64,000 nt of DNA from Escherichia phage vB_EcoS_MM-2, in sequence record PV577658; one strand, given 5' to 3'. Shown piece after piece: positions 9,819-64,000 of the stretch. A program made the position numbers and the translations under genes. Under the pieces are notes generated by a model, which saw nothing but the letters and a program-made list of their open reading frames with translations, did not search any database and was not told the DNA's origin. How positions within the stretch are numbered: the first letter of the stretch is position 1; each line of letters begins with the position of its first letter.

Positions 9819-9832
9819 CTTTATAAATGTAC

Positions 9833-9880
9833 TTGCTTTCAACTCAGTTTTGTTATATAATATTTATATAAATTAATGAG
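9833..9880 (+). promoter_or_regulatory. early promoter (TTGCTT-17-TATAAT)
   Basis: ttgctt..tataat then atttatataaattaatgagag downstream box. Confidence 0.55.
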
Positions 9881-9891
9881 AGGGTTGCAAA

Positions 9892-16299: not shown

Positions 16300-18867
16300 T
16301 TGAAAATCGCAGTAGTTGATAAAGCTCTAAATAACACTCGTTACGATAAACATTTCCAGCTATATGGCGAGGAAGTTGATGTATTTCATATGTGTAACGA
16401 GAAGTTATCTGGTCGTTTGCTTAAAAAGCACATTACTATTGGAACACCAGAAAACCCATTTGATCCGAATGATTACGATTTTGTTATACTAGTAGGTGCT
16501 GAACCTTTCCTGTATTTCGCAGGTAAGAAAGGCATTGGTGACTATACTGGTAAACGTGTAGAGTATAATGGATATGCTAACTGGATTGCGAGTATCAGCC
16601 CAGCCCAGTTACACTTTAAACCTGAAATGAAACCAGTTTTCGATGCAACAGTAGAAAATATCCACGATATTATCAATGGTCGTGAGAAGGTTGCAAAAGC
16701 TGGTGATTACCGTCCTATTACTGACCCTGACGAGGCGGAAGAATATATCAAGATGGTGTATAATATGGTTATCGGACCTGTCGCATTCGACTCCGAAACC
16801 TCAGCACTATACTGTCGAGATGGTTATCTGCTTGGTGTTTCTATGTCTCACCAAGAGTATCAGGGTGTATATATCGATTCTGATTGTCTCACCGAGGTTG
16901 CAGTATATTATCTCCAGAAAATTCTGGATAGTGAAAACCACACTATTGTTTTTCACAACCTGAAGTTTGATATGCACTTTTATAAGTACCATCTGGGACT
17001 TACTTTTGATAAAGCGCATAAAGAACGCAGGCTCCATGATACTATGTTGCAGCATTATGTTCTAGATGAACGTCGTGGTACTCATGGCTTGAAATCTCTA
17101 GCAATGAAGTATACCGATATGGGTGACTATGACTTCGAACTAGATAAGTTCAAAGAGGATTACTGCAAAGCACATAAAATCAAGAAAGAAGATTTCACCT
17201 ATGATTTAATTCCGTTTGATATTATGTGGCCTTACGCTGCGAAAGATACCGATGCTACCATACGTTTGCACAACTTCTTCTTACCAAAAATTGAGAAGAA
17301 TGAAAAACTTTGTAGTCTGTATTATGATGTCCTAATGCCTGGTTGTGTATTTCTCCAGCGTGTTGAGGATCGTGGTGTACCTATTTCTATTGATCGTTTA
17401 AAAGAAGCTCAGTACCAGTTAACCCATAATCTGAATAAAGCTCGTGAAAAACTGTATACTTATCCAGAAGTCGTTCAGCTAGAGAAAGATCAGAACGAAG
17501 CGTTTAACCCAAACTCTGTTAAACAACTCCGTGTTCTTCTGTTTGATTATGTTGGCTTAACTCCAACAGGTAAATTGACGGATACTGGAGCAGATTCTAC
17601 AGATGCAGAAGCTCTGAACGAATTGTCTACGCAGCATCCAATTGCTAAGACTCTACTAGAGATTCGTAAGCTAACTAAGCTGATCTCTACTTATGTTGAG
17701 AAGATTCTTCTGAGTATTGATGCAGATGGTTGCATTCGTACTGGTTTCCACGAACATATGACTACTTCTGGTCGTCTGAGTTCTTCCGGTAAACTGAACT
17801 TGCAACAGTTACCTCGTGATGAATCTATTATCAAGGGTTGTGTAGTAGCTCCTCCTGGGTATCGTGTAATCGCATGGGACTTAACAACTGCGGAAGTTTA
17901 TTATGCTGCTGTTCTATCTGGTGATAGAAATATGCAACAAGTATTTATCAACATGAGAAATGAACCAGATAAATACCCCGACTTCCACTCTAACATCGCA
18001 CACATGGTATTTAAGCTCCAATGCGAGCCTCGTGATGTTAAAAAGTTATTCCCAGCTCTGCGTCAAGCAGCTAAAGCAATCACCTTTGGTATTCTGTATG
18101 GTTCTGGCCCAGCTAAAGTAGCTCATTCTGTTAACGAAGCTCTTCTGGAACAGGCTGCTAAGACAGGCGAACCGTTTGTAGAGTGTACGGTTGCAGATGC
18201 TAAAGAGTATATAGAAACTTACTTCGGTCAGTTCCCGCAGCTTAAGCGTTGGATTGATAAGTGCCATGATCAGATCAAGAATCATGGATTTATCTATAGT
18301 CACTTTGGTCGTAAACGTCGTCTGCATAATATCCACTCCGAAGACCGTGGTGTTCAAGGTGAAGAAATCCGTTCTGGATTTAACGCAATCATTCAGTCTG
18401 CTTCTTCTGATAGTCTCCTTTTAGGTGCTGTAGATGCAGATAATGAGATCATTTCTCTTGGCCTAGAACAAGAGATGAAGATTGTTATGCTGGTTCACGA
18501 CTCCGTAGTTGCTATTGTTCGTGAGGATTTGATCGACCAATACAATGAAATCCTAATTCGTAATATTCAGAAAGACCGCGGTATTAGTATTCCTGGCTGT
18601 CCGATTGGTATTGATTCAGATTCTGAAGCTGGAGGTTCTCGCGACTACTCTTGTGGTAAGATGAAGAAACAGCACCCATCAATCGCTTGTATTGATGATG
18701 ATGAATATACTCGTTATGTCAAGGGTGTATTACTTGATGCAGAATTCGAGTATAAGAAACTAGCTGCAATGGATAAAGAGCATCCAGATCATAGCAAATA
18801 CAAGGATGATAAGTTTATTGCTGTATGTAAAGATTTGGATAACGTGAGAAGGATTCTCGGTGCTTGA
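16300..18867 (+). CDS. family-A DNA polymerase with 3'-5' exonuclease domain
   Basis: 855 aa; exo motif FDSETS, motif A WDLTTAEVYY, motif B RQAAKAITFGILYG, motif C LVHDSV; TTG start after AGGAG. Confidence 0.9.
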   Translation: MKIAVVDKALNNTRYDKHFQLYGEEVDVFHMCNEKLSGRLLKKHITIGTPENPFDPNDYDFVILVGAEPFLYFAGKKGIGDYTGKRVEYNGYANWIASISPAQLHFKPEMKPVFDATVENIHDIINGREKVAKAGDYRPITDPDEAEEYIKMVYNMVIGPVAFDSETSALYCRDGYLLGVSMSHQEYQGVYIDSDCLTEVAVYYLQKILDSENHTIVFHNLKFDMHFYKYHLGLTFDKAHKERRLHDTMLQHYVLDERRGTHGLKSLAMKYTDMGDYDFELDKFKEDYCKAHKIKKEDFTYDLIPFDIMWPYAAKDTDATIRLHNFFLPKIEKNEKLCSLYYDVLMPGCVFLQRVEDRGVPISIDRLKEAQYQLTHNLNKAREKLYTYPEVVQLEKDQNEAFNPNSVKQLRVLLFDYVGLTPTGKLTDTGADSTDAEALNELSTQHPIAKTLLEIRKLTKLISTYVEKILLSIDADGCIRTGFHEHMTTSGRLSSSGKLNLQQLPRDESIIKGCVVAPPGYRVIAWDLTTAEVYYAAVLSGDRNMQQVFINMRNEPDKYPDFHSNIAHMVFKLQCEPRDVKKLFPALRQAAKAITFGILYGSGPAKVAHSVNEALLEQAAKTGEPFVECTVADAKEYIETYFGQFPQLKRWIDKCHDQIKNHGFIYSHFGRKRRLHNIHSEDRGVQGEEIRSGFNAIIQSASSDSLLLGAVDADNEIISLGLEQEMKIVMLVHDSVVAIVREDLIDQYNEILIRNIQKDRGISIPGCPIGIDSDSEAGGSRDYSCGKMKKQHPSIACIDDDEYTRYVKGVLLDAEFEYKKLAAMDKEHPDHSKYKDDKFIAVCKDLDNVRRILGA

Positions 18868-50552: not shown

Positions 50553-52310
50553 TTAGGTAAGGCGTTGAACTGTTACTCTTAATCTAGGTAGAAAAACTGC
50601 ACTACCTAAACTTACGTGCATAACTACCCCTAACTCTACATTTCCATTCCCCAGATTTTTAGCAGTATATATAAAACTATTTCTACTTAGGGCATTGTTA
50701 GGTGTGTATCTAAAAGCAGATGTAGTATGAAAAGGTACTAAATACCCTACTGGTAATGTTAAAATCTGGTGGAATATCGCGTCACCATTACTATAACTAT
50801 ATGCTCTTCTTCCTTGCACCTGAAACACACCGTTATTCCATGTATTAGCAGGGACACCTGCACAGTTAAGATTACCTGATATAACTTCAGTGGTAAGAAT
50901 TACTGTAGCATTGCCACCCGGTATACCTAGCCCAATAGTTGATAAACCAACGTATCTATCTCCTGTTCCTGGGTAGCTGGGGGTAATATCATCTCCCATA
51001 TAAGAACTACCTACATTTCCACCAAAAAGTCGTAATGGAACTGCTGATGGTCCCCAAACAACCCCGTGTTCATTACCGATAGTATTATCATTAGAGTTTA
51101 CGTACCATTGCTTACCAGCTCCGAATTTGTAAATACTAATTTGAGACTTAGCCCCTCCATAGTCCACAGGAGACCATAAACTCCCGTTACTAGAACCTAC
51201 AAGTTCACACCTTGCGGTGGTATCCCCAAAGGCCCCAGTATATGCTGCATTATTTCCAATATATTCCATATCTGGTCTATAACCTAAGTTACCGAAAGCG
51301 TTCTGGTTAATAAACTTGTATCCAGTATTGGGAAGACTAACCCCTTTAATTATGAAATTAGAAGGAGATATAAGAATATCTGAACCAGTAAAAGGATTAC
51401 CAGAGATACTCATACCACCATTTGAGTATCTTAAATTCAAAACGTACCAAATAACTTTAGTAGGAGTTATGTTATACCAATCTTGTAGTATTGTAGAATC
51501 ACCAGATTGATTAGCTAAATTAGTTGTAGAACCCCTACAAACAAACCTATTACCCCCATCATGATACATAGTATTTACATTACCAGGAAGACCTTGTCTT
51601 ACCCCACCATACCCACGTATGTTAGAGTTACAAACATAGAACCAATCGTGCCCTCTGTGTGCTGATCCTAAAGGAGACATCCATCCTGGGTCCCAGTAAT
51701 TTTGGTTATTCCCATCTATAGGTACTGTACTACTATTAGTAGGGAATCCTAACTGTGCAAAAGCTTCTGCAACAGTAACCCCTACTGGAGCTCCTGCACC
51801 TGGCCTAACTATACCATGATACGTACTATGTAGGGTAGTTCCACCAGTACCATTCCTAGAAATAGATTCTTCATGCCCTATAGATGGATTATAGTTATAT
51901 GTACCAGATGCCAGGCTATTACCAAATGCAAATCCACTAGTCTGGGAAACACTAGCAAAAGATCTAAAAGGATCTGCTTGAGTGGCAACTATAGTTTGAC
52001 CCACCTTACTCTGAGTACCATTAAGAAAAGCTCTGTGAGTACCATTAATCTCAATAGCAGTTAATATAACTCTACCAGGATCGTTAGATTTAATATTTAT
52101 TATGTCAGAGGGCATCTGACATACAAAAAACCCATTTCCGGCATTTCCTAACCCAGCCTCATAAGTACCATCAACTAGGACAAATGGCATATCACTATGA
52201 AAAATACTATTGGCATTTGGACTATAGTGACGATTAATGTCACCACCAGATTCAGTATTTAAAGATAGTACGGTCTTACCATCGCTATATTTTCCAGCGA
52301 AAAAACCCAT
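50553..52310 (-). CDS. receptor-binding tail protein (T5 pb5-like)
   Basis: 585 aa, Gly/Asn/Ser-rich beta protein, transcribed divergently from the lipoprotein gene as oad/llp are in T5. Confidence 0.6.
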
Positions 52311-52335
52311 ATAATCTCCTATTATAAAAATGTAT

Positions 52336-52364
52336 TTGCTTTCATCCCTCTATTTTGCTATAAT
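52336..52364 (+). promoter_or_regulatory. early promoter (TTGCTT-17-TGcTATAAT) for the lipoprotein gene
   Basis: ttgctttcatccctctattttgctataat then agattcataaatt box. Confidence 0.6.
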
Positions 52365-52395
52365 AGATTCATAAATTAGAAATGGAGAGATAAAT

Positions 52396-52662
52396 ATGAA
52401 AAAGTTTGTGATTGCACTAGTTGCCGCAGTTATGTTATCTGGTTGTGCACCTGCTCCCAAACCATTTTGTACTGGATTTGTAAAATCTTTTGGTGGTGCG
52501 GGAGAAGAACATTACGGCCTCAAGGTTCAAAAAGTTCGTATTAAGGGAGATCGCTTCCCAGTAGTACAGCTCCGTACTAAGTTTGGATGGTGGGATCTCA
52601 GTCAGTTTGACCTTAAATATGGTGATTGTAAATTTAAACTAGAGCAATCTAACTACATGTAA
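52396..52662 (+). CDS. llp: Llp-type outer-membrane lipoprotein (receptor-blocking superinfection exclusion)
   Basis: Signal peptide with lipobox (MKKFVIALVAAVMLSGC); 88 aa precursor; position next to the receptor-binding gene. Confidence 0.75.
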   Translation: MKKFVIALVAAVMLSGCAPAPKPFCTGFVKSFGGAGEEHYGLKVQKVRIKGDRFPVVQLRTKFGWWDLSQFDLKYGDCKFKLEQSNYM

Positions 52663-52839
52663 TTAGTATAAAGCAAAAAGACATCTAAGTAAACTAAATT
52701 TTTTATTTTTTGGATGGTATATTGGCAGAAACCACTATGTAAGAAAATGAGAAGTCCTTCTAGGAAGTCACAAGCATGGTTGGTTATATACAAATTATAA
52801 AATATTTTAAAATACCATACTCATAGGAGCAAGAAAGAT

Positions 52840-52967
52840 ATGTCAAATAAAAGAAAGAACAGACGCGGAGAAGTGTACGAAGCGTGGATTAATATTTACG
52901 GATTTGGTTTTGTATTATTCCTAATCTTCGTAGGTTTTTGGTTAGCAGCTATGGCGGGGTGGATTTA
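52840..52967 (+). CDS. small membrane peptide (~42 aa), first of a coupled array
   Basis: Hand-translated: MSNKRKNRRGEVYEAWINIYGFGFVLFLIFVGFWLAAMAGWI; AGGAG RBS; stop overlaps next start (TAATG). Confidence 0.4.
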
Positions 52968-53123
52968 ATGGAATGGGTAATTATTGGCATATTCGTCTTA
53001 TTGATACTTCTCTTTGTAGGCTTACGTGTAATAGATACCTCTGTAACCCAAACAGAAATTAAATTAATGCAGTTGAGTAATAGATTATCTAGAATTGAAA
53101 CTTTATTAGAGGAGCGTAAATAA
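52938..53123 (+). CDS. small single-pass membrane protein (likely start at MEW, ~52968)
   Basis: MEWVIIGIFVLLILLFVGL hydrophobic helix then RIETLLEERK. Confidence 0.45.
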   Translation: MVSSYGGVDLMEWVIIGIFVLLILLFVGLRVIDTSVTQTEIKLMQLSNRLSRIETLLEERK

Positions 53124-53230
53124 TGGAATGGGTAATTATTGCACTACTGGGGATTGTGATTATTGGGCAATGTATTTTAGATAATTATTTAGCTAGAATT
53201 GAAACCTTACTATCGGAGAAACGTAAATGA
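53123..53230 (+). CDS. small single-pass membrane peptide (~35 aa), paralog of the previous gene
   Basis: Hand-translated: MEWVIIALLGIVIIGQCILDNYLARIETLLSEKRK. Confidence 0.4.
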   Translation: MEWVIIALLGIVIIGQCILDNYLARIETLLSEKRK

Positions 53231-53421
53231 TGGAAGTGGGAATTACACTAATAGTAATATTAGTCTGGGTAATCCTCATTGTCTCTCGTATAGTGTATCT
53301 CCGCCTAAAAACTCTAGAAGCTCAGGTGAAACAACAACAAGTTATTCTAGAAAAGTTAGTACTACTGCAACGTTGTGATAGCACCCGTATTCTGCAAATT
53401 GAGAGGGAATTAGATGTTTAG
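53227..53421 (+). CDS. small single-pass membrane protein
   Basis: MMEVGITLIVILVWVILIVSRIV hydrophobic helix then coiled-coil-like tail; ATGA overlap with upstream gene. Confidence 0.45.
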   Translation: MMEVGITLIVILVWVILIVSRIVYLRLKTLEAQVKQQQVILEKLVLLQRCDSTRILQIERELDV

Positions 53422-53659
53422 TATTGTAATTGCTTTTATTATCGGGATACTTGCGGGAGTTTTCGGGACAACTGCGGCAATCAACAAGCATCGTAAATAT
53501 ATTGCGGAAGTATCGCGGGAGATTGCGGAAAGGGAGCGGAAGTTTGACGAGAAACGTGCGGAGTTTGAGCGGGAGTGGTCGGACGGATCTCGGGCGTCGC
53601 GGAAGAGATTCCGTGAGTTCAGACCAGAACACAGGTTTGATGACCATTCTATGCGCTAA
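53414..53659 (+). CDS. small single-pass membrane protein with highly charged C-terminal tail
   Basis: MFSIVIAFIIGILAGVFGTTAA helix then Arg/Glu-rich tail. Confidence 0.45.
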   Translation: MFSIVIAFIIGILAGVFGTTAAINKHRKYIAEVSREIAERERKFDEKRAEFEREWSDGSRASRKRFREFRPEHRFDDHSMR

Positions 53660-53770
53660 TTTGACTTTTGCCAAATTTCATAAGATTACACATGGAGGTG
53701 TGTCCAGTGGGTCGGGGGAGAATACTTAGTCTGCTAACCGCCACCCCCCGTTACTATTATCATGGTAATT

Positions 53771-53807
53771 GTTTCACCCTGCAATTAAAATGGTTGCAGG
53801 GTGAAAC
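53771..53807. terminator. bidirectional terminator hairpin (perfect 14-bp stem)
   Basis: gtttcaccctgcaa-ttaaaatgg-ttgcagggtgaaac between the plus-strand peptide array and the minus-strand dmp-like gene. Confidence 0.7.
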
Positions 53808-53824
53808 AATTTCAACTTTAATTA

Positions 53825-54601
53825 TTACGCAACTTTTAATTTCTCGATATATTGTTGCGGGCTGCAACTATATTCTGCGCGTTCTTCCTCGGTCATACCT
53901 TCCCAACATAATTTCAAACGATCAGCTAGGAATTGATAATCATTATCATCATCGAGGGATTCATCAATAAAGGTTTCACCTATCAATGCCACGCCGATTG
54001 ATAGAATATCGTTAACGGCTTGCGCGTCCAGCGTTTTAAATCCGTATGATGCCGCCGCTGATAGTACACCCTTATGATCATCAATCATTGTAAAATCAGC
54101 GTTCGGATATAACTGTTTAAATAATTCAAAATAATAAGATTTATAAACTGCGTCTTTGCTGTGGTATATCTCGCTAACTTTATCAGCCTCAAAATATTTA
54201 TGCAGTGTATCGCGAGAAAACACGCGGATATTACTATCACCACGACCGCGCAAGCCTTGTTTGCGCAAATAATAATAGTCCGACTTGCTCATTAGTCGAG
54301 CGGTACAAATAATGTTTAAAGTATTTGCGTCATTCATGCACTGGCGCATATATGTAACAAGGGGCAATAAAGTATCTTGCATTATTAAATCATGTTTGCA
54401 GGCTTCATTTTTATACTTATTTAAATCTAAATTGCCCTCGCTATCAAAGCAAGGCGCTACACGATGGAAAGAATTAATGATAGTGCCGTCCAGATCCCAA
54501 ATCATGACGCGGGAAATATGCGGGAAATTACGGGTAATATTCATTTTAACTTGATTCATTTTGTTACGTTCTCCATTAAAGGGATTTAGTTTATCCAGCA
54601 T
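53825..54601 (-). CDS. dmp: HAD-family 5'-deoxyribonucleotidase-like protein (T5 dmp-like)
   Basis: HAD motif I MIWDLDGTI; first gene of a minus-strand operon with A1/A2-like genes; likely internal start giving ~244 aa. Confidence 0.55.
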   Translation of the reverse strand: MLDKLNPFNGERNKMNQVKMNITRNFPHISRVMIWDLDGTIINSFHRVAPCFDSEGNLDLNKYKNEACKHDLIMQDTLLPLVTYMRQCMNDANTLNIICTARLMSKSDYYYLRKQGLRGRGDSNIRVFSRDTLHKYFEADKVSEIYHSKDAVYKSYYFELFKQLYPNADFTMIDDHKGVLSAAASYGFKTLDAQAVNDILSIGVALIGETFIDESLDDDNDYQFLADRLKLCWEGMTEEERAEYSCSPQQYIEKLKVA

Positions 54602-54639
54602 TACCCGCTATTTATAAGCGGGTAATAATAAATCAACTA

Positions 54640-55032
54640 TTAAAGACCATAAGCCAACGCATCAGCGATAAAACTAACATCCTCACCGGATACGCTAGAA
54701 CGAATCCCCGCGCAGGTGTATACCTTTGCGCTCGCTAGCTGATCATCAAGGCAAGCGGGGCAAGGCGCGACAACTGCAAAGGCTAGACCAGATTTTACCG
54801 CGTCAATAATGATTGTTTCTTGTTTCATCGTGTCAACATAAACGCCTTTTGCTTTAATATGGCTGGTTAGTTTGCCTTGCGTATAGGCAAAGGTAGTAAC
54901 CTGTAAAGCGTCATTGAAATCTAATAATTCATCAATAACGTGCCCCGCCTCGACGTGGTAACGTTCACCATTAGAATAAACCAGAACAATGGAAGACTGA
55001 GCGCGATCGAATGGAATATTTTGCTTTTTCAT
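54640..55032 (-). CDS. small Cys/His-containing protein, possibly deaminase-like zinc-binding
   Basis: HVEAGH ... PCPAC motifs, but spacing (~70 aa) is longer than in canonical cytidine deaminases. Confidence 0.3.
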   Translation of the reverse strand: MKKQNIPFDRAQSSIVLVYSNGERYHVEAGHVIDELLDFNDALQVTTFAYTQGKLTSHIKAKGVYVDTMKQETIIIDAVKSGLAFAVVAPCPACLDDQLASAKVYTCAGIRSSVSGEDVSFIADALAYGL

Positions 55033-55071
55033 ACTTATAAAACTCCAATTAGTTTAATATAGGGATTTAAT

Positions 55072-55362
55072 TTATTTGATAATAATCTGCATCTGGTACG
55101 GCGTTAATTCACCGTTTACGGGTAAATTATTATCGCTTAGCCACTCATAAAAAGCGCCATCATCATCAAAAGGAACAACATCATTATCACGATAATCGAT
55201 GGAAATAATGCCATCCGTATTAGTTTTGGCGGCTAGGATAGGCCCAAAGCTGTAAACTTTATCGGATTCCATTTCATCCGGTGAGATGAATGCTTTTTCG
55301 TCCAATGTTTTGGGTAATGTAACTTTCATTTTTTGACTCCTGTAATAGCGGCTATATTTCAA
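55072..55362 (-). CDS. hypothetical pre-early protein (likely start at Met ~55329)
   Basis: Track ORF with conserved upstream translation-initiation region. Confidence 0.4.
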   Translation of the reverse strand: MKYSRYYRSQKMKVTLPKTLDEKAFISPDEMESDKVYSFGPILAAKTNTDGIISIDYRDNDVVPFDDDGAFYEWLSDNNLPVNGELTPYQMQIIIK

Positions 55363-55382
55363 GCCGCTAGGGGATAATTTAA

Positions 55383-57047
55383 TTACGCGAAAAATTTACC
55401 GTTTTTAAAGTCAATCAAAGTGCGCTGACCGTTTGCATAGGTAATTAAATGCGTTTGCGTCCAGCTTGACGCGCCAACGTTGTAACCCATATCCAGACTA
55501 CCAGCTACGCCAGCGGTATAAACGCCACCGTAAATGCTAGCGGTATGGGTGTGTCCCGTGTTTAGCTTGCCCAATTTCTTAAACTGTTTAGGATTGCCAC
55601 GACTGCCGTTAATGCCGTTGTGACCGTGTACGCCGCACTCAATGCCTGCAATCTTGAAAGATTGATCAGTGGTTAGGAAAATGGCGTTAAACTCACAACC
55701 TGCAACCTTGCGCAGCGCATAATCTAGCACGTTAAAAGTATCATCATGATCACTGATCGCCGCGTAAATTGCAGCATTCAGGCGGTGATATAGTTCGGCG
55801 TTGGCTGGATCGTCTTTGATGTTAGCATTACGATCATCTAACCAGCGGGATAGCGCCAAATCGTGATTAGATTCAACAATGATTGTTTGAGAGAAATCAC
55901 GTTCCATTGATTCCAGCACGCGCCCCGTATCGATAAGATCATCCAGAACTTTATCACGTCCAGCGGCATACTGTTTTGCTAGGAATACACCGGATGCACG
56001 GTTATGATGATTGCGCGATGTAAAATCATGCACGTCATGGATAAACTGATATTTTGGTTTAAGAATATCAAGCAAGCTATTTTCGCCAGCCCATGACGCA
56101 ACGGCACAATCATCATCTAATTTTTCCGCATGAATATCGCCATACTGCAAGCCTAAAACATGCCCCGATGTTTCATAGCATCCGGCAGGAGTAGCGCAAA
56201 CATTCAGATCATAAAACACCCCGCTTTCGTCCATTGTTTCAAGCTGGCGAACAAAAAATTCCCCGTCCTCGTCGAACTCAACAATCAGCGCGCCGAAGTT
56301 ATGCAGAGCTTCCGCTTTTTGTCCTGCTTTCTGCTGAATATAGTTTTTAAGCGTTGCCGTTCCGGTTGAATACATACGGCGCACTACTTCACCTTTTAAA
56401 GCTGGCACGCTTTCAGCGGTGATTTTAGCGTGACCAATTGCCAGCCCCTCAATATTGAGCGCCGTTGCAGTTTCTGCAAATCCTGAAAGCGGGTAATCTG
56501 CGGTTGGCAAAACATTAATTTCAGCCATGAAAGCAAAACGGCGGTTATTTAAAAACACGTTTTTGCTGCAAATATATTTATCAAATGCGGGATCGTATTT
56601 GATACCGTCTGCACCTTCTTCATTCTGGAAGCCATTTTTATTATAAATATACTTAGAAACAAGCAAATCAGCACCGATATATTCAGCGAATTTTTCCAGA
56701 CTTGCTAAAAAGTTTTTATGCGGGAAAGTATTATTTTGAATCGACGTAATAATAAAGCGTTTACCCTGTTTTACTTCCCATTGCTCAACCGTACTAGAAA
56801 CAATTCCCGCCGCTTCTGGGCGCTCATCGTTTTTAATGGCTTTTGCTACTTTTGCCGCTTTCGGTTTAGCTGGTTTATTTGCTTCCAGCCAGTCGCAGAT
56901 AGCGGTTGAATGCTTCGTTGTATCGTAGACCGCTTTTGATATATCGTCGCAGACTTCCAGTTTAGTAGCGCGCAGACGTTTACCATAGAAATTAAAGTCA
57001 GCGGCCATTTTCAGGATAACGGTTTGTTTTTCTGCGGAAATAATCAT
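55383..57047 (-). CDS. A1: A1-like pre-early protein with calcineurin-like metallophosphoesterase motifs
   Basis: 554 aa; GDIHAE and GHTHTAS metallophosphatase-type motifs; size and context match T5 A1 as I recall it. Confidence 0.6.
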   Translation of the reverse strand: MIISAEKQTVILKMAADFNFYGKRLRATKLEVCDDISKAVYDTTKHSTAICDWLEANKPAKPKAAKVAKAIKNDERPEAAGIVSSTVEQWEVKQGKRFIITSIQNNTFPHKNFLASLEKFAEYIGADLLVSKYIYNKNGFQNEEGADGIKYDPAFDKYICSKNVFLNNRRFAFMAEINVLPTADYPLSGFAETATALNIEGLAIGHAKITAESVPALKGEVVRRMYSTGTATLKNYIQQKAGQKAEALHNFGALIVEFDEDGEFFVRQLETMDESGVFYDLNVCATPAGCYETSGHVLGLQYGDIHAEKLDDDCAVASWAGENSLLDILKPKYQFIHDVHDFTSRNHHNRASGVFLAKQYAAGRDKVLDDLIDTGRVLESMERDFSQTIIVESNHDLALSRWLDDRNANIKDDPANAELYHRLNAAIYAAISDHDDTFNVLDYALRKVAGCEFNAIFLTTDQSFKIAGIECGVHGHNGINGSRGNPKQFKKLGKLNTGHTHTASIYGGVYTAGVAGSLDMGYNVGASSWTQTHLITYANGQRTLIDFKNGKFFA

Positions 57048-57137
57048 AGTAATAAAACTCCATTAAAGGGATTAGATTAATAACGGCAATATTGCCAAAT
57101 ATAACGCCTCAAATAATAGGCGTTATAATTTGCAACA

Positions 57138-57335
57138 TTAATTTAAAGGCACTAGGCTAGAACTAACACCACAAGCAACGGCAGCGATAAAACAAAGCAA
57201 GCCCAAACGTTTTGCTAATTTAGATTTACGTTTAAAATAATATGAATCTAAATCATTTTGAAAATAAGCGAACAATAACGAGGGCGCCATAATAAACAAG
57301 CCTAGAATTAATGATTCAGTAGGATAAAAGATCAT
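57138..57335 (-). CDS. small membrane protein (two predicted TM helices)
   Basis: MIFYPTESLILGLFIMAPSLLFAYF ... LGLLCFIAAVACGVSS; AGGAG RBS. Confidence 0.4.
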   Translation of the reverse strand: MIFYPTESLILGLFIMAPSLLFAYFQNDLDSYYFKRKSKLAKRLGLLCFIAAVACGVSSSLVPLN

Positions 57336-57429
57336 TTTAAAAACTCCTGATTTAAGGGAAGAAAATAACTATCGCTAAACAGTTATATTATTGCCCCCTC
57401 ACTAAAAAAAGGGGGGCAAGGTATAACTA

Positions 57430-57837
57430 TTATTCGCCTGCGGCTTGTTTTACTTCCTCGGCAACGCCTAACAATTGCGCTACTGCGTCCAGCGTTTCAA
57501 GTTTTGCACTTTCAAGGCTTGCCAGATCATCGGCATCTTTGATAATGCCGGAATCGATAGCGTGTTTTGCAATAACGCGTACATAATGAGCTTTGCGGAT
57601 TGAACTACCGCCGCCAACTTTGCGGGGCTTACCGCTTTTTTGATATGCTTTTGCGCTGGTCAATTTTGACCGAACGGATACGGGAGAAGCCGCGCCTACT
57701 GCTTTTGCAATCTCTTTCAGGCCGTCGCTATTTGCGAAATCTAAACCGTTTTCATTAATTAACTGTTGATACATGGAAACAGCTTTCTGAGTGTTTTCTT
57801 CATTCCATGCGAATTTTGCGGTTTTAGCGTTAGTCAT
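57430..57837 (-). CDS. A2: A2-like pre-early DNA-binding protein
   Basis: 135 aa (~15 kDa), basic central region; position upstream of the A1-like gene. Confidence 0.5.
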   Translation of the reverse strand: MTNAKTAKFAWNEENTQKAVSMYQQLINENGLDFANSDGLKEIAKAVGAASPVSVRSKLTSAKAYQKSGKPRKVGGGSSIRKAHYVRVIAKHAIDSGIIKDADDLASLESAKLETLDAVAQLLGVAEEVKQAAGE

Positions 57838-57933
57838 GATGTAACTCCTATTAGTTTAATTTAAGGGATTAGATTAACTTAATGTTAATCGTTATATCCC
57901 CCTGAAATAAGGGGATATAAAGTTAACACTAAT

Positions 57934-58185
57934 TTACAATACAGCTTCCCATTTTTCGTTGCGTTGAACAACCTTTACAACATCGCCGGATTTAACGCGA
58001 ACGCTAAAAACGGGCTTGCCGTTGTTACTACGTTCATTTTCAGCGTATACCGCGTCGATTGTATCGAACGGCATAAGCGCCGCACCTTTAATACGTTCGG
58101 CCTTTCCGGTTAATTCATCCGTTTTAGTAACGAAAGGAATGAAGACGAATTGACCAACTTTCGGCGCGGTAATAACGTTTTGCAT
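57934..58185 (-). CDS. hypothetical pre-early protein
   Basis: 83 aa; first gene of the minus-strand block. Confidence 0.4.
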   Translation of the reverse strand: MQNVITAPKVGQFVFIPFVTKTDELTGKAERIKGAALMPFDTIDAVYAENERSNNGKPVFSVRVKSGDVVKVVQRNEKWEAVL

Positions 58186-58415
58186 AATATAAACTCCTAG
58201 TTATTTGGGGATTGTTCCGCATTACCTGCTAGAAAGTAACAGCAGGTAATAAGTAACAATCCGCTCGCCAATATAATCAATTTTAAAGAACTCCACGTAG
58301 GCCGCTATATCCCGTTAGGGGGCGGGATGCATTATGGTAAGCACCGACCGTCAAATTTTATCAAGTTATCGCTCTTATCGAACTGGGTACATCTTAAAAC
58401 CTATCGGCTAGGTTG

Positions 58416-58619
58416 TCAAACAATTTTTTGCAATTTTTTATGATTTTCTTTTAGGTCAATCATAATATTTCGCCAGATCATTTCCAGACCTTGCTGGCGA
58501 CCTTTCTTGTACTGCGTGAATCTATATCTTACTGATCTTTGAGCTACTGTCAACAAATTTTTTGTTTTGCTATCTAGTGCCTTAATAGGCTTGCCAGTGA
58601 TCAAAAGCGTTTGTTTCAT
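58416..58619 (-). CDS. hypothetical small basic protein
   Basis: 67 aa, Lys/Arg-rich; weak RBS. Confidence 0.3.
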   Translation of the reverse strand: MKQTLLITGKPIKALDSKTKNLLTVAQRSVRYRFTQYKKGRQQGLEMIWRNIMIDLKENHKKLQKIV

Positions 58620-59066
58620 ATCGTCGATTCCTTATAATGAATAAGTTTACCGCCGATAGGCTTTAAGATGTACCCAATTTTTAAAGAGCGTGGCGGTAAA
58701 CTTCCCGCCGTGTAGTTCGTCATTGCCGCCCTACGAGATAAATAATAGGGGATTCCCGAAAATGGCGCAACCTTATTTTTGTAAAGAAATGTAAAGGTAA
58801 AACTCACCGGACACCGTGCGGCGACGGCCTAAAATTAAAAGAAACGGGCGCGCGAATACCACAAAATAAAGCAAATAGGCAAGTAATTTTTTCATTTATA
58901 TTTGCTTTGCCCTACTTGACAAAATCTAAAAAGCTCGTGGTAACGATAAACGGCTTATCCCCTTATGATGGGATGGCTAAAAACTTTATTGCGTTCTGGA
59001 GCGTTTTAGGCGCATTCTAGCCTTGTTGATAACTTATCCCCAAAAGCAAAAATGAAATTTTCCTAG

Positions 59067-59099
59067 TTATCCACTTGACTTTTATTTTCCAGTGGATAA
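59067..59099. promoter_or_regulatory. inverted pair of DnaA-box-like 9-mers around a TTGACT hexamer
   Basis: agTTATCCACTtgacttttattttccAGTGGATAAct; 11-bp perfect inverted repeat, each arm one mismatch from TTATCCACA. Confidence 0.5.
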
Positions 59100-59273
59100 C
59101 TACTTATTTTATGAAATAAATTAATTGACTTTTATTTGTTAGTATGCATCGGAAAGATAGCAGACTAATAATTGCTAGAATGATAATCATGCTGGTGGAT
59201 TGTAACGACCTGAATTATTAGCAGACTATTAATCACGGAAAAATCTCATTAGCCAACTAACTATTTCATGATA

Positions 59274-59300
59274 TATAATATACATATAAATTAATGAGAA
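59274..59300 (+). promoter_or_regulatory. promoter-like element of the early family
   Basis: tataat followed by atacatataaattaatgagaaa box; no convincing -35; no gene for ~430 bp downstream. Confidence 0.35.
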
Positions 59301-59351
59301 ATAATAACTATAAGAAATCATCTAGCTAAGTGAGAACCACTATCATTTAAG

Positions 59352-59372
59352 TTATACACAAAGTTATCCACA
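59352..59372 (+). promoter_or_regulatory. two adjacent DnaA-box-like sites
   Basis: gTTATACACAaagTTATCCACAgc: one perfect consensus 9-mer and one with a single mismatch. Confidence 0.5.
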
Positions 59373-59443
59373 GCACTTTTTGACTTGACACGATAGGCGG
59401 CGATATAAGGACTTTTACACAGACTTATCTACAGGTTATTCCA

Positions 59444-59459
59444 CTGTATAAATATACAG
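59444..59459. promoter_or_regulatory. LexA (SOS) box-like palindrome
   Basis: CTGTATAAATATACAG fits CTGT-N8-ACAG with AT-rich spacer. Confidence 0.45.
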
Positions 59460-59726
59460 GGTAAAAAGGTAGTGTTAACAACTGCAATCAATTTTAAGCG
59501 GCTTAAATCGCATTCTAACGAGCTAAACGCTGCGGGGTAATATTAAAGTAAAGCCTTAATGCGTCGCCCTGGTGGCTTCGCCGTGGTTTGCTCTTTATTG
59601 CACCGCTGCGCGGTTAGCATAAAAATAGGCGCTAGGCAAGGAAAATAAAAAGGTAAAATAATATTTGCCTATGCTAGAAATTTACCTTTATCATTCACTC
59701 ACCGATTAACGAGGGAGGCCGAACAA

Positions 59727-60506
59727 ATGAGGCTTTATAAACCTGATAATGCCACCGTTTTAAAAGGTGCATTGCGCAACCTGCTGGATGGTAGCAAGTC
59801 AACCAGCATTAAACATTTTATTAACAAGATTGAAACTATTCATCAAAACTTTTTTGATGATTATGACGCTTATGATATGGATAGTTTTCTACCCTTATAT
59901 AGACAAGGGGCAACGCTAGTTTTATATAATCGGGATTGCCATATCTTTACAGGCAGGGGAGCGGGGCCGGATACCGATTTTATTGTTGCGCAGGGTAATA
60001 ATATTGTTGCGTATCATAGCAATTCAGGCCGTCAATCATTTAATATAAATAGTTTTGAGCTTATTGGACTTGATCTGATAAATGGACTTTCTAGCATTGA
60101 GGGATTTTTAGATGTTATCTGGAAGTATTTACCCGCTGGATGGCATAAGCCGGATAACGACGGATCTCAATATACCGGTATAATGGCTTTTGATGGCGAC
60201 GGTAATTTTTTGTTACCACGGGAGCTATACCCATATATTTATGATGGGGATATAGAAAGCGCTGGTTTTTCTTTCTGGAAAGATGAAGATCAGATTATTG
60301 ACAGCGTAGAAAACCATGCTGTAAATTCTAACACTCAAAGCGTTAACACTCAAACTACTGAAAACAAAGGAAAAAACACTATGACCAAGATTGCTAACAT
60401 CGTTGCCGCTAATAAATCCGCCGTTGTAAATGCTGCAAAACTGGAAGCGGGTAAAATTGCACTGACTCAAATCACGAAAGTAGCGGCTAAAAAGCACCGT
60501 TCATGA
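59727..60506 (+). CDS. hypothetical protein, 259 aa
   Basis: Track ORF with RBS GAGGGAGG; no recognisable motif. Confidence 0.45.
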   Translation: MRLYKPDNATVLKGALRNLLDGSKSTSIKHFINKIETIHQNFFDDYDAYDMDSFLPLYRQGATLVLYNRDCHIFTGRGAGPDTDFIVAQGNNIVAYHSNSGRQSFNINSFELIGLDLINGLSSIEGFLDVIWKYLPAGWHKPDNDGSQYTGIMAFDGDGNFLLPRELYPYIYDGDIESAGFSFWKDEDQIIDSVENHAVNSNTQSVNTQTTENKGKNTMTKIANIVAANKSAVVNAAKLEAGKIALTQITKVAAKKHRS

Positions 60507-60736
60507 TTAAAGGCTATATTGATACGCCGATTGGTCGAGTAGTGATTGCTAACCTGCTAAGTGTAGCGGTTGACCAGTACGCACCGACTAACCAGAAAGC
60601 GAAAGCGGTAGCAGGGGCGGCTATGGAAGCGGCAATGCTGGAAATGGTGCAAAGTTTTAACATCGCTGAAATGATTGATGAAATGGTGAAAGGTATTGAT
60701 ATTTCTACTTTTACCACTAGCACCGAAATCGAGTAA
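60503..60736 (+). CDS. hypothetical protein
   Basis: Track ORF, ATGA overlap with upstream gene. Confidence 0.4.
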   Translation: MIKGYIDTPIGRVVIANLLSVAVDQYAPTNQKAKAVAGAAMEAAMLEMVQSFNIAEMIDEMVKGIDISTFTTSTEIE

Positions 60737-60801
60737 TAATATTTAGTGGGGATTATTTCCCCACTTTACTACTCCCTTGTTAATTAATAGGAGGCTAACT
60801 A

Positions 60802-61296
60802 ATGGCTGAGGAAAAATACGGCTTCTCGCTAGGAGAAGTGAGCACGGCTAAACATGATATGATCATTTTAGTCGATTGTCATACTGGCTATTGCGGAGAA
60901 GGGAACACCGAAGAATACTTTGTTCCTGCTGGTACGGATCTGGACGCTTTCGCTCATGAAATGGCTATTGATAATGCTTCTCGTTTTGGTAGCGATGGCT
61001 ATGAAGACGAAGAAACTGGCGAATGGTATGAAAATGAAAACGTATATGCAAGCCTTTATCATTATCAGCTAAGTAAATCCGGCACATATGTAAACGGCGG
61101 CGATCCTATTAATTCCGTCATGAAATTAATTATTAAATATGGTGGCGTCGAGATAATTGATAACAAAGCGGTAATATACGCAAACCGATTAAAACAGCTT
61201 GTTTATATTCCTGATAGTACCCGATGGGATGAATACGCTGTTTTGCATGACGAATTGAAACGATGTTTCAATATTGAATCCCTGCAAGTAGTCTAA
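60802..61296 (+). CDS. hypothetical acidic protein
   Basis: Track ORF with RBS AGGAGG. Confidence 0.45.
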   Translation: MAEEKYGFSLGEVSTAKHDMIILVDCHTGYCGEGNTEEYFVPAGTDLDAFAHEMAIDNASRFGSDGYEDEETGEWYENENVYASLYHYQLSKSGTYVNGGDPINSVMKLIIKYGGVEIIDNKAVIYANRLKQLVYIPDSTRWDEYAVLHDELKRCFNIESLQVV

Positions 61297-61323
61297 TGTA
61301 AAGTTTTGTAAAGGTCGCCTTTT

Positions 61324-61632
61324 ATGGTGGCCTTTTTTGTTATAATGCTTTTACACCAAAACGGTGGATTGAAAATTTTCCCAAAAATTTGGAGGCTTAA
61401 AATGGTTGCTTATTCTTCTGCTAGTCATCTGTTTACCGCGCAAGGCTGGGTATCTAATCGTGCTGTCATCTATGAAATGGTGCAGGAGTTCGGCATTGCT
61501 AAAACTTATAATACCATTCAGGAACTATATAACGCCGATAAAATCGATCAGCAAACGGCTGGCTTTTTACTGGATACCCTGAAAGCTGAACATTGCACTA
61601 AAAAACAAGCCGCTAAAATTGTTTTAATGTAA
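61324..61632 (+). CDS. hypothetical protein (likely start at Met ~61402)
   Basis: GGAGG RBS precedes the internal Met; followed by hairpin cggggcg..cgccccg. Confidence 0.4.
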   Translation: MVAFFVIMLLHQNGGLKIFPKIWRLKMVAYSSASHLFTAQGWVSNRAVIYEMVQEFGIAKTYNTIQELYNADKIDQQTAGFLLDTLKAEHCTKKQAAKIVLM

Positions 61633-61681
61633 TTAATAACGGGGCGTTACTTTCGCCCCGATAACTAGGAGGCTATCACAA

Positions 61682-61832
61682 ATGGTTATTTTTCGATCTA
61701 TTTTAGCGGGTATCTTGGGCGCTATTTTATCGTTATTTGCGATAGCTTTCGGCGTTCACGCTGTTATTATTGGCGCTGGCATTGCTGCGTTTTCTTATCT
61801 GCTGGGCTGCATGACTAGTAAAGGAGAATAAA
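61682..61832 (+). CDS. small membrane peptide (~50 aa)
   Basis: Hand-translated: MVIFRSILAGILGAILSLFAIAFGVHAVIIGAGIAAFSYLLGCMTSKGE; AGGAGG RBS. Confidence 0.35.
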
Positions 61833-61833
61833 A

Positions 61834-62046
61834 ATGATCCGCAACGTTTCCCTTGCACGTTCGAAAGGCTTTAAGCTGGTGGATGTTAACACGTTCGAGT
61901 GGGAAGATTGTAAAATCGAATATGTAGCACGTAACAAAAATGCCTTTCGTGTTACCGAGAAAAAATTTGATAAGCGCGGCAACGTGATAGCTGAAACAGT
62001 TAAACATTTTGCCACCTTTTACGCTGCTTTCCGTGGGGTATTATGA
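61834..62046 (+). CDS. hypothetical protein
   Basis: Track ORF. Confidence 0.4.
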   Translation: MIRNVSLARSKGFKLVDVNTFEWEDCKIEYVARNKNAFRVTEKKFDKRGNVIAETVKHFATFYAAFRGVL

Positions 62047-62146
62047 TTCAGCAAATTAAAACGGCTTTTCGTTTTTGGGGCGTCCTGCCTTCAATTGGTT
62101 TTATTCTGATAATTATTAGTCAGCTAATGATCATCGGCGGAACTAT

Positions 62147-62506
62147 TTGGGAGCTATGCAAATGATAATTTATGAAGGCAATCGCTTTGTTGCTAATTGC
62201 CGTCCGGCATTATTAGCAAACTATTTAAACCAGCTTTCCCCAGCTTATAAGGGCGTTATTAATATTTATGAGGGAAAGGCGCATTATAAAATTAATGCGG
62301 TCGTTGCCCGTGAACTAGCATTTCAATTTTTGACCTTTGCATCTTGTGACGTTCAGGTTATGGGTGAGGCATTAATCGCGGAAAATGAAGAGGATTTTAT
62401 TAATATTTTCCGTAAGGTATGCACTGAGCGCTTGATAATGAAAGGCGCGTATATTCAATCAACTGCGGAAAGTATTGAAACAGCATTTCGAAAGGTGGCG
62501 CAATGA
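62147..62506 (+). CDS. hypothetical protein
   Basis: Track ORF. Confidence 0.4.
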   Translation: MGAMQMIIYEGNRFVANCRPALLANYLNQLSPAYKGVINIYEGKAHYKINAVVARELAFQFLTFASCDVQVMGEALIAENEEDFINIFRKVCTERLIMKGAYIQSTAESIETAFRKVAQ

Positions 62507-62606
62507 GATTATATATTTTCGTTGGTAATGTTAAGGCAGCTAATGATTCCGCTGGTGGCGACAACGTTCGCCACCATTGGCAAAAATATATTTACTAGGA
62601 GTTATT

Positions 62607-62711
62607 ATGTCTGGTTTAATGTTTACCTTATTAGTAGTTTATAGCATAATTACGGCAGGAATAGTAACTTATGTTACTAGTAAAATTTGGCCGGGAATAT
62701 ATGGTAATTTT
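62607..62711 (+). CDS. small membrane peptide (~34 aa)
   Basis: Hand-translated: MSGLMFTLLVVYSIITAGIVTYVTSKIWPGIYGNF; RBS AGGAG. Confidence 0.3.
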
Positions 62712-62729
62712 TAATAACGGAGCGTTATT

Positions 62730-62933
62730 ATGAGCAATAAAATTATTGTAACCAAAATCAGTACAATGGTTGATGTTTTTTACGTGCCAGATACGCCGGA
62801 GAATCGGCAAGCGGTCGAGCGGGGCGAATATGATAAAGTGATTTATGATCACGATGGTTATTATCAGTATTTGGTGGATTCCTACGGGGAGGAGGAGAAG
62901 ATCACGCATCGACTACCGGAGGAGGGTTTATGA
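62730..62933 (+). CDS. hypothetical acidic protein
   Basis: Track ORF with RBS ACGGAG. Confidence 0.4.
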   Translation: MSNKIIVTKISTMVDVFYVPDTPENRQAVERGEYDKVIYDHDGYYQYLVDSYGEEEKITHRLPEEGL

Positions 62934-63083
62934 AACGATGGTTTAATCACTGGTACAAGCGGTTTTTAGTACGCCGTCGCAAGTCTAGGCATCAAGATGA
63001 GTGGCGGGAGTGGGCAAAGCGTAACGGTTGCCCGCTACTATAATAATCACGGGGCGCAACTATCGGGAAGTGCCCCCAATTCT

Positions 63084-63106
63084 CAAATGAGAATCATTCT
63101 CATTTG
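63084..63106. repeat. perfect 11-bp-arm palindrome caaatgagaat-c-attctcatttg
   Basis: Core aatgagaatcattctcatt recurs at ~63474 (imperfect) and ~63581 (perfect). Confidence 0.7.
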
Positions 63107-63299
63107 ACCGCGCCCGCGATGGTTAGCCTGCTAATGATTAGGGTGTTACGTGTCGCCTTGTGTGATCGTTAGCGAGCTAACTAATTTTCAAGCCTCCTCC
63201 AATTTTGCCCTTGTTTTAGTATCTCCACCAAAATTAAACGCGTTAGAATGCGATCTAGGACGTTTTAACGCTATATTAGAATTATTCACTGCGTAGGAA

Positions 63300-63319
63300 T
63301 ACTGTATATTTATACAGTA
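63300..63319. promoter_or_regulatory. LexA (SOS) box-like palindrome, 19/20 match to consensus
   Basis: TACTGTATATTTATACAGTA versus TACTGTATATATATACAGTA. Confidence 0.5.
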
Positions 63320-63399
63320 GGATAAGCTGTGATAAGTCTGTTAATAACACCCCAAAATGGCTAGGATTCTGTCAAGTCAAATCGTGCTGTTAATAAGTC

Positions 63400-63408
63400 T
63401 GTGGATAA
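63400..63408 (-). promoter_or_regulatory. DnaA-box-like site (perfect 9-mer on minus strand)
   Basis: tgtggataa is the reverse complement of TTATCCACA; flanked by repeated gataagtctgt. Confidence 0.45.
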
Positions 63409-63426
63409 CTTAAATAATAGTGTTTC

Positions 63427-63600
63427 TCACTTCCGTTCTTAAATACGAATCACTATCATTTGCGTTCCACTTTCTAAATGAGAATCATTCTGCTTTTTAA
63501 AGGAGAATCGTTTCACTTCCTGAATAATTCTCACTTCCATTCTTAAATGCGAATTATTATCATTCTCATTCCGCTTTTTAAATGAGAATCATTCTCATTA
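63427..63600. repeat. two ~70-100 bp imperfect direct repeats carrying the aatgagaatcattctcatt palindrome
   Basis: ctcacttccgttcttaaatacgaatcactatcatt... and ctcacttccattcttaaatgcgaattattatcatt..., each ending in the palindrome core. Confidence 0.65.
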
Positions 63601-63639
63601 TCATTCGCATTCAGGCGAGCAGGGCAATTGCCCTGCGCT

Positions 63640-63760
63640 TTTGTGCAAATCCGACATTGCTCCACGGGTGTTACGTGCGGGCGTGTATGTGCGAATCCCT
63701 GTGGGGTATGTGCAAATCCGACACGGTTTTTCTAGGATTAAGATGTGCGAATCCGACAAG
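63640..63760. repeat. four iteron-like copies of ATGTGC(A/G)AATCC(GACA)
   Basis: tgtgcaaatccgaca, tgtgcgaatccctgt, tgtgcaaatccgaca, tgtgcgaatccgaca at ~20-35 bp spacing. Confidence 0.65.
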
Positions 63761-63770
63761 ATTTTTGTGA

Positions 63771-63960
63771 CTTCGATTGGAGGGTGTGTGATTGTGTGAG
63801 TTTGGGGAGAAGTTGAGAGAGCGAGAAAAATTTGAGGGAACTGCGGGAGGGGCGCATGTTTGGTGCGGAGCACCTGATTTGCGGGGATTTTGGGGAAGAG
63901 TTGAGAAGATTTGGGTTAATTTGAGATTAGTGCAGAAAAAGTAAAATTTTATTAGCTAAA
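63771..63960 (+). other. polypurine, C-depleted tract with repeated (t)ttgag(a/g) motifs
   Basis: Almost no C on the plus strand; gttgagagag, tttgaggg, gttgagaag, tttgagattag; no credible ORF. Confidence 0.5.
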
Positions 63961-64000
63961 TGGAGCAAAATAGCTTGACAAGTGAAAATTCTTGTGGCTC

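Follow-up and report, generated by a model that had tools for sequence, protein, structure and literature searches.

The DNA analysed here is a stretch of 64,000 nucleotides (nt) of Escherichia phage vB_EcoS_MM-2 (PV577658), called the window below, and the region under study, at 58810-59726, is a non-coding segment flanked on one side by the leftward hdi, A2 and A1 genes and on the other by the rightward gene 011 operon. Escherichia phages vB_EcoS_MM-1 and ECOP18 are 100% identical to it over window 58600-59800, and more than 500 T5-like records were matched. The right end of MM-1 is 99.9% identical to window 52000-64000, and BLAST comparison with the left ends of MM-1 and T5 delimited a terminal repeat at 53702-64000, the end of the window being the exact right boundary of the repeat. 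The window can be identified from these matches as the right end of a Tequintavirus genome. The copy studied here sits in the right terminal repeat, the last part to enter the cell; an essentially identical copy is carried by the left terminal repeat, which is the first-step-transfer DNA. A preliminary description of the region had proposed first-step-transfer DNA of the T5 type, in which the region divides a leftward pre-early block from rightward genes. The BLAST comparison with the T5 and MM-1 terminal repeats agrees with the former proposal, and the flanking genes and promoters map in accordance with the latter.

The locus and its T5 counterpart

Three annotated T5 records show at this place the leftward promoters P-D/E20 and P-H22 in or near T5.008 (hdi), the 35-codon gene 009 and hegG, and a rightward promoter with gene 011. 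T5 Repeat Regions 1 and 2 constitute the two flanks of the hegG insertion and were formerly one region (Davison, bioRxiv 10.1101/866236). BLAST aligned window 55327-59129 with T5 1647-5418, and window 59217-60740 with T5 5942-7430; as these two blocks flank the hegG insertion, the window lacks the hegG cassette (about 0.5 kb, HNH endonuclease). The region occupies the interval from hdi/009 to gene 011 inside the terminal repeat, and its flanking genes and promoters map to those of T5. It contains the IRC-spacer-IRD block, whose inverted partner is in Repeat Region 3, and one pair of DnaA boxes each in IRC and IRD, with 3 bp between the two boxes of a pair. Judged by these features, it corresponds to Repeat Regions 1 and 2 of T5, untranslated DNA between two pre-early transcription units.

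Repeat Regions 1 and 2 have been considered to be too far left for the stop signal of injection, which was assigned to Repeat Region 3 (Davison, bioRxiv 10.1101/866236). In the AY692264 annotation, the T5 injection-stop region is a misc_feature at 9140-10144, which maps to window ~63050-64000, about 3.5-4 kb right of the studied region. The preliminary description had suggested an equivalence with the injection-stop region; the position was wrong, and it rules out the studied region as the canonical injection-stop signal, but the kind of DNA had been rightly recognised, as the IRC-spacer-IRD block of the region (59328-59527) repeats the stop-signal core (63234-63432) in inverted orientation.

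For comparisons within the family, 37 T5-like loci were gathered via the A2 protein, and the intergenic region was aligned for 22 distinct sequences. Four small open reading frames (ORFs) of the region, annotated as coding sequences in the MM-1 record, are intact in only 1 to 8 of the 22 aligned relatives, which bears out the earlier statement that 58810-59726 holds no convincing ORF. These four tiny hypothetical coding sequences (PV577657.1, 5072-5947), being unconserved, look over-annotated. A permissive Rfam scan of 58000-64000 returned only matches at chance level.

Two inverted arms with DnaA boxes and a LexA-like site

The region, the two arms and the sites that they carry are as follows.

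58810-59726, no strand assigned: non-coding region, right-repeat copy of T5 Repeat Regions 1 and 2, contiguous and without hegG
59328-59527, + strand: arm 1 (T5 IRC-spacer-IRD plus extension), inverted repeat of 63234-63432
59352-59372, + strand: tandem DnaA-box pair 1, TTATACACA (59352-60), AAG, TTATCCACA (59364-72); 3-bp gap, both boxes consensus
59385-59390, + strand: TTGACA hexamer in mid-spacer, conserved in both arms, with no usable -10 after it
59413-59433, + strand: tandem DnaA-box pair 2, TTTTACACA (59413-21), GAC, TTATCTACA (59425-33); 61 bp after pair 1
59442-59461, no strand assigned: LexA-operator-like palindrome CACTGTATAAATATACAGGG, arm-1 copy of T5 palindrome D; 16/20 positions agree with TACTG(TA)5CAGTA
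63234-63432, - strand: arm 2 (T5 IRD'-spacer-IRC'), in the canonical injection-stop region; DnaA-type boxes on the - strand at 63339-47, 63388-96 and 63400-08
63300-63319, no strand assigned: LexA-operator-like palindrome TACTGTATATTTATACAGTA of arm 2, T5 palindrome D; 19/20 positions agree with the consensus

These elements form a module of about 130-200 bp, in which two tandem box pairs, with all four boxes in the same orientation, are followed directly after pair 2 by the LexA-operator-like palindrome. A second, inverted copy of the module lies 3.9 kb to the right, within the injection-stop region; in BLAST comparisons the arms are homologous to T5 6022-6220 and 9264-9463. The TTGACA hexamer at 59385-59390 was not picked up by the promoter scan.

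DnaA boxes were scored with the consensus TTWTNCACA, as given by Schaper and Messer (cited by Davison, bioRxiv 10.1101/866236), near-consensus boxes being defined as TTATCCACA with at most one mismatch. Seven near-consensus boxes are present in the region, compared with 21 in the whole 64 kb, and no sliding window outscores those that overlap the region. None of 1000 dinucleotide-preserving shuffles of the region reached seven (mean 0.24, maximum 2), and 195 AT-matched windows taken elsewhere contained a mean of 0.24 and a maximum of 2. The preliminary description had named as its own refutation a box density no higher than that of coding regions with similar AT content; this test was run and fails to refute it, with 7 boxes found and 0.24 expected. 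Exact consensus boxes are not enriched over the whole window (9, compared with 7.1 expected), and 3 of the 9 fall within 70 bp here. As in a cluster of DnaA-binding sites, several TTWTNCACA 9-mers thus occur above chance density. The two 9-mers pointed out earlier at 59352-59372, TTATACACA and TTATCCACA, both fit the consensus; the DnaA boxes are real and conserved, and the second tandem pair (59413-33) and a back-to-back pair (59024-42) had been missed.

The constraint on the boxes was analysed in a gapless alignment of 58 arms, i.e. both copies from 29 distinct T5-like sequences. All four box positions are retained in both arms of the 29 sequences. The seven constrained positions of the boxes have a mean entropy of 0.19 bits, compared with 0.67 at W and N positions and 0.45 elsewhere in the 132-bp repeat. 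Substitutions in the boxes respect the DnaA consensus, the fixed positions being conserved and the W and N positions free to vary: box 3 varies among TTTTACACA, TTTTGCACA and TTATCCACA, every one of which is consensus. In arm 1, boxes 1, 2, 3 and 4 are consensus in 27, 14, 29 and 25 of the 29 sequences, respectively, and the TTATCTACA found in the window is a one-mismatch variant of box 4 that is unique among them. Boxes 2 and 3 of arm 2 are mostly TTATCAACA or TTATTAACA, both off-consensus. Box 4 of arm 2 (63327-63335) carries a 1-nt deletion in the window (TTAT-CACA) and is intact in the other 28 sequences, including MM-1; the deletion may be genuine or may stem from a sequencing error.

The two arms show no sign of having co-evolved. 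Identity between arms is 0.764 within genomes and 0.762 between genomes (p = 0.14, permutation test), and each arm resembles its counterparts in other phages (0.86 and 0.93) more than its own partner. Base pairing or concerted evolution between arms was rejected by this permutation test, and the absence of co-evolution therefore speaks for protein-binding sites rather than for base pairing or gene conversion.

LexA operators of the SOS response in gammaproteobacteria, for example those of sulA, umuDC and recA, have the consensus TACTG(TA)5CAGTA. Like SOS boxes, both palindromes, each located at the outer end of its arm, have the 16-bp form CTGT-N8-ACAG with a TA-rich centre. Heterology indices were calculated with a matrix of 25 E. 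coli operators, and the values are approximate: 5.0 for 59442-61 and 1.0 for 63300-19, compared with a training mean of 6.6. Within the 64 kb, these two sites rank second and first, respectively, and an index of 1.0 was not reached by any site in 200 shuffles. The LexA-like site is retained in all 58 arms, with an index of 3.9-7.3 in arm 1 and 1.0-3.4 in arm 2. The third-best site of the window, AACTGTATACTTATCCAGAA (17450-17469, index 7.7), is located within an 855-codon ORF and probably matches by chance. It was also observed that site strength is complementary between the arms, arm 1 combining DnaA boxes that are mostly consensus with a weaker LexA-like site, and arm 2 boxes that are mostly off-consensus with a near-perfect one.

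Other lineages were reached via the A1 protein, which gave four relatives with 14-19 kb of sequence each: Pectobacterium phage My1 (A1 66% identical to that of the window), Klebsiella phage Roth39 (73%), Proteus phage M4H10_20 (42%) and Vibrio phage Dax (31%). In all four, every TTATNCACA box is confined to two non-coding regions, which match the studied region and the stop region; the two box clusters are in opposite orientations, 3.5-4.7 kb apart. The order box pair, TTGAC spacer, box pair, palindrome can be recognised in My1 and Klebsiella Roth39 and, more loosely, in the Proteus and Vibrio phages. In My1, Klebsiella Roth39 and the Proteus phage, the two best LexA-like sites are found one per non-coding region beside DnaA boxes, with the exception of Proteus cluster 1, where the nearest DnaA box is ~300 bp from the LexA-like site; in Vibrio Dax both top LexA-like sites are in the stop-region cluster. 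A Rhizobium phage with an A1 homologue proved to belong to the Autographiviridae and to have no comparable terminal repeat, and was uninformative on co-variation with a differing host LexA motif.

The exact string TTATCCACANNNTTATCCACA is present in at least 120 viral contigs of many sizes (IMG/VR loci L084-L163), where chance would give only a few. This layout, two tandem DnaA boxes with 3 bp between them, seems to recur in phages and other mobile elements, and the pair geometry is therefore not special to T5. The combined box-plus-palindrome string matched only T5-sized contigs and had no match in 5,426 E. coli genomes, and a host origin of the module was rejected on this ground.

Further motifs accompany the arms. 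The palindrome AAATGAGAATCATTCTCATTT and its variants are present in at least five copies in the stop region (63076-63105, 63432-63600), and both arms keep a related motif, GTGAGAAaCACTaTCATTTAAG, at their inner end (59328-59351, 63409-63432). These motifs are a candidate site for another dimeric protein, perhaps A2.

Variable cassette, promoters and neighbouring genes

Outside the module, the following features were placed in or next to the region.

59013-59105, no strand assigned: variable cassette 'form 1', with four DnaA-like 9-mers and the 12-bp inverted repeat
59024-59042, both strands: back-to-back DnaA-like pair, TTATCAACA on the - strand (59024-32) and TTATCCCCA on the + strand (59034-42); form-1 phages only
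59064-59102, no strand assigned: 12-bp perfect inverted repeat, arms TAGTTATCCACT (59064-59075) and AGTGGATAACTA (59091-59102)
59130-59325, no strand assigned: AT-rich spacer, 26-28% GC, poorly conserved; site of the hegG cassette in T5 and relatives
59665-59694, + strand: gene 011 promoter (T5P4 equivalent), TTGCCT, 18 nt, TATCAT, with an A-rich upstream tract; from the promoter scan and T5 annotation
58553-58526, leftward: P-H22 equivalent, mapped from T5
58419-58391, leftward: P-D/E20 equivalent, mapped from T5

The inverted repeat carries TTATCCACT on both strands (59067-75 on +, 59091-99 on -), with TTGACT at 59075-80 between them. It had been described as an 11-bp repeat of DnaA-like 9-mers around TTGACT and taken as the main feature of the region. 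The repeat is present and perfect, with a length of 12 bp rather than 11, and it belongs to a cassette that varies between lineages: 59013-59105 has form 1 in 10 of the 22 aligned sequences and an unrelated form 2 in the other 12, including T5, while the flanks are conserved. Form 2 contains no DnaA-like 9-mers. Folded as RNA, the inverted repeat reaches -18.6 kcal/mol (z = -5.9), whereas the T5 equivalent does not fold (z = +1.0). A conserved terminator was therefore rejected as an explanation of the repeat, and because only form-1 sequences carry it and the T5 counterpart has no fold, the repeat is lineage-specific. Insertions after window position 59129 were found in 9 to 10 loci. All hegG-bearing phages have form 2, as do three phages without hegG (insertion point 59129/59130); this association suggests co-conversion with, or immunity to, the homing endonuclease.

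Gene 011 starts at 59727, and the promoter upstream of it is stated to be experimentally characterised. A leftward promoter is predicted at 59478-59451 on the - strand (TTAACA, 16 nt, TATATT); its -10 falls within the LexA-like box, and the DnaA boxes follow closely downstream. This promoter is kept in most Tequintavirus arm-1 copies, and is not found in T5 arm 1, in arm 2 or in distant genera. Such a promoter would read toward 009 and hdi (host division inhibitor).

To the left of the region, 58620-58800 is near-invariant in 22 T5-like sequences, with a conservation above that of the neighbouring genes. Gene 009 (35 codons, 58616-58723, - strand) overlaps the start of hdi and is intact in only 14 of 22 sequences. 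A putative leftward promoter has a conserved -35 TTGCGC (58770-58765) and a conserved -10 TATTAT (58747-58742), separated by a 17-nt spacer that varies. The A2 gene lies at 57430-57837 on the - strand. The AlphaFold model of its product (mean predicted local distance difference test score, pLDDT, 85) has two domains, both all-helical (residues 13-61 and 77-132), with a linker of low confidence between them. A Foldseek comparison of this model with solved structures gave no significant match (best E-value 0.6; LexA only at E = 5.8), and the A2 sequence had no match in the PDB nor in a copy of Pfam that does not contain PF26822, the tag carried by its database homologues. On the basis of these comparisons, A2 was rejected as a LexA-like protein.

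Interpretation and comparison with known systems

How T5 halts once 8% of its DNA has been injected, and how injection resumes, is a question about 60 years old, and the T5 transfer mechanism is still described as unknown in papers of 2023 and 2026, the latter terming it poorly understood. Davison (bioRxiv 10.1101/866236) described the paired DnaA boxes and proposed that membrane-associated DnaA binds them and stops the DNA, that both inverted copies take part and that A1 and A2 then release the block; the same work cites an unexplained second first-step-transfer band of ~5.8 kb in T5, near arm 1. The explanation that best fits the present results, and in which we have moderate confidence, is that the region contains a binding module for the host factors DnaA and probably LexA, accessory to the stop-signal arm, in promoter-bearing non-coding DNA. 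On entry of the left-repeat copy into the cell, both modules would be occupied by host DnaA and probably by LexA, so that two oppositely oriented nucleoprotein complexes would bracket the rightward pre-early operon; these complexes might help to hold or organise the first-step-transfer DNA during the injection pause. This model follows the DnaA tether of Davison, with the studied arm as an accessory, non-essential partner of the stop-signal arm. The sequence of the module, its enrichment in boxes, the constraint on them and their conservation across the family are observed directly; from these we infer that DnaA and LexA may bind, and that their binding may have some effect on DNA transfer.

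Several observations weigh against an involvement of the module in the injection pause. A viable small-plaque T5 mutant deleted from hegG to gene 017 has been described in a 2026 preprint; its deletion primers map to AY587007 5393-9081 (coordinates derived by primer mapping and not stated in the preprint), so that the equivalent of arm 1 is lost in full and arm 2 is retained. As this mutant is viable, arm 1 is dispensable in the laboratory. Many boxes of the stop-signal arm are off-consensus (TTATCAACA, TTATTAACA) and are to be read as putative sites only. In My1 and Klebsiella Roth39 the module is not located between divergent genes, so that its context is not fixed. The binding of cytoplasmic proteins does not obviously explain a halt of DNA entry, and functional studies are said to be lacking in papers of 2023 and 2026, in the former with reference to these sites.

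In one alternative, the region would be an ordinary divergent promoter or regulatory region, in which DnaA and LexA tune the pre-early promoters to host physiology and have no role in DNA transfer. We consider this unlikely, although strong pre-early promoters do flank the region, the -10 of the predicted leftward promoter at 59478-59451 is inside the LexA-like box, and joint control of a promoter by DnaA and LexA is known for uvrB (PMC6015884). The boxes are ~230 bp upstream of the gene 011 promoter, the LexA-overlapping promoter is not kept in arm 2, T5 arm 1 or the distant phages, and the same module occurs at the stop region with no gene after it. The first cluster is not between divergent genes in My1 and Roth39, and a divergent-promoter role is therefore unlikely as a conserved one. 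Recognition by a phage protein is an improbable alternative: the candidate would be the essential dimeric A2, which would restart transfer at both arms, the resemblance to DnaA and LexA sites being mimicry or coincidence. A2 is a DNA-binding dimer that is needed for second-step transfer and whose target is not known, and both the palindrome and the left-end motif GTGAGAAaCACTaTCAT, which is related to the AAATGAGAATCATTCTCATTT palindromes of the stop region, are conserved. Nevertheless, substitutions in the 9-mers track exactly the degenerate positions of the DnaA consensus, the palindrome fits the LexA consensus at 19/20 positions, flanks included, and the all-helical A2 model has no significant match to LexA or to any other solved fold.

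Two further explanations appear very improbable to us. The preliminary description had proposed a divergent control or origin region; the region does lie between divergent pre-early units, whereas a role as origin is unsupported. A DnaA-dependent replication origin would combine DnaA boxes with an AT-rich unwinding region, and four phased boxes do adjoin a stretch of 26-28% GC; tandem pairs with a 3-bp gap are, as seen with the at least 120 exact matches to TTATCCACANNNTTATCCACA, common in other viral contigs. The 917 bp of the region, however, contain no GATC (2.6 expected), so that the GATC cluster of oriC-type origins is absent, and the AT-rich stretch (59100-59325) is the least conserved part and is split in T5 by the 0.5-kb endonuclease gene. 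T5 origins have been mapped near the genome centre, and replication genes are absent during first-step transfer (as cited by Davison, bioRxiv 10.1101/866236); the arm is moreover dispensable in T5. The long-range inverted repeat could also act by base pairing, as an RNA stem between the ends of the operon transcript or as a DNA cruciform or knot, with the resemblance to protein sites being secondary, a proposal that we find hardly credible. The arms, of ~200 nt and ~76% complementary, do flank the operon. Against this, they do not co-vary within genomes and are closer to their counterparts elsewhere than to each other, as described above, Rfam found nothing, and the gene 011 promoter is downstream of arm 1, which places arm 1 outside that transcript.

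The locus and its DnaA boxes are already known from T5, and the LexA-like site is the only element that is possibly new. LexA or SOS is not mentioned in the Davison preprint nor in the accessible T5-family literature, a scope that does not include a 2015 review and older papers. We suggest, tentatively, that the module may be a composite operator for host DnaA and LexA, conserved as two inverted copies on first-step-transfer DNA across the four Demerecviridae lineages sampled outside the T5 group; if this were true, LexA, and hence the SOS state of the host, would take part in the injection pause, in the restart or in pre-early control of a virulent phage. The comparison sharpens the question of the T5 pause. 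The conserved unit is a defined module of ~130 bp and not the striking inverted repeat, the constraint on the DnaA boxes reaches distant genera, and the module ends in a near-consensus LexA-operator-like site, which narrows the question to two candidate host proteins and few base changes.

Compared with T5 Repeat Regions 1 and 2 (IRA', IRB, IRC-spacer-IRD, IRB'; AY587007, Wang et al.; bioRxiv 10.1101/866236), the studied region has the same position between hdi/009 and gene 011 and ~77-86% nucleotide identity, and the IRC-spacer-IRD block, the tandem DnaA pairs and the inverted partner in Repeat Region 3 are common to both. It differs from T5 in having no hegG insertion, Repeat Regions 1 and 2 being contiguous as in most relatives, and in having the form-1 cassette with its four extra DnaA-like 9-mers and 12-bp inverted repeat. 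T5 arm 1 has lost box 2 through a 2-bp deletion, whereas the window retains it. The T5 stop signal (Repeat Region 3) shares a module of 132-200 bp (box pairs and palindrome D) with the studied region, in inverted orientation. Unlike the studied region, it occupies the right end of the repeat, immediately to the left of the 7.9% nick/shear point, and has many further repeats (DRC, DRD, DRE; palindromes E to J). Most of its DnaA-type boxes deviate from the consensus, and it has the stronger LexA-like site.

In oriC arrays the gap within pairs is 2 bp, compared with 3 bp in the module of the T5 family. The region is like the oriC, datA and DARS clusters, and the tandem boxes of plasmid and phage origins, in having several phased consensus 9-mers of fixed orientation within ~80 bp, with strong and weak sites mixed. 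The module differs from oriC, datA and DARS in having no GATC cluster and no clearly conserved unwinding element, in being present as two inverted copies kilobases apart, and in having no known replication role. With respect to LexA operators, the palindromes of the module, which are putative sites, have no consistent overlap with promoters and are found in the non-coding DNA of a virulent phage beside DnaA boxes. They are nevertheless like LexA operators in their CTGT-N8-ACAG form, and their index, an approximate value, is within the range of the training operators or better.

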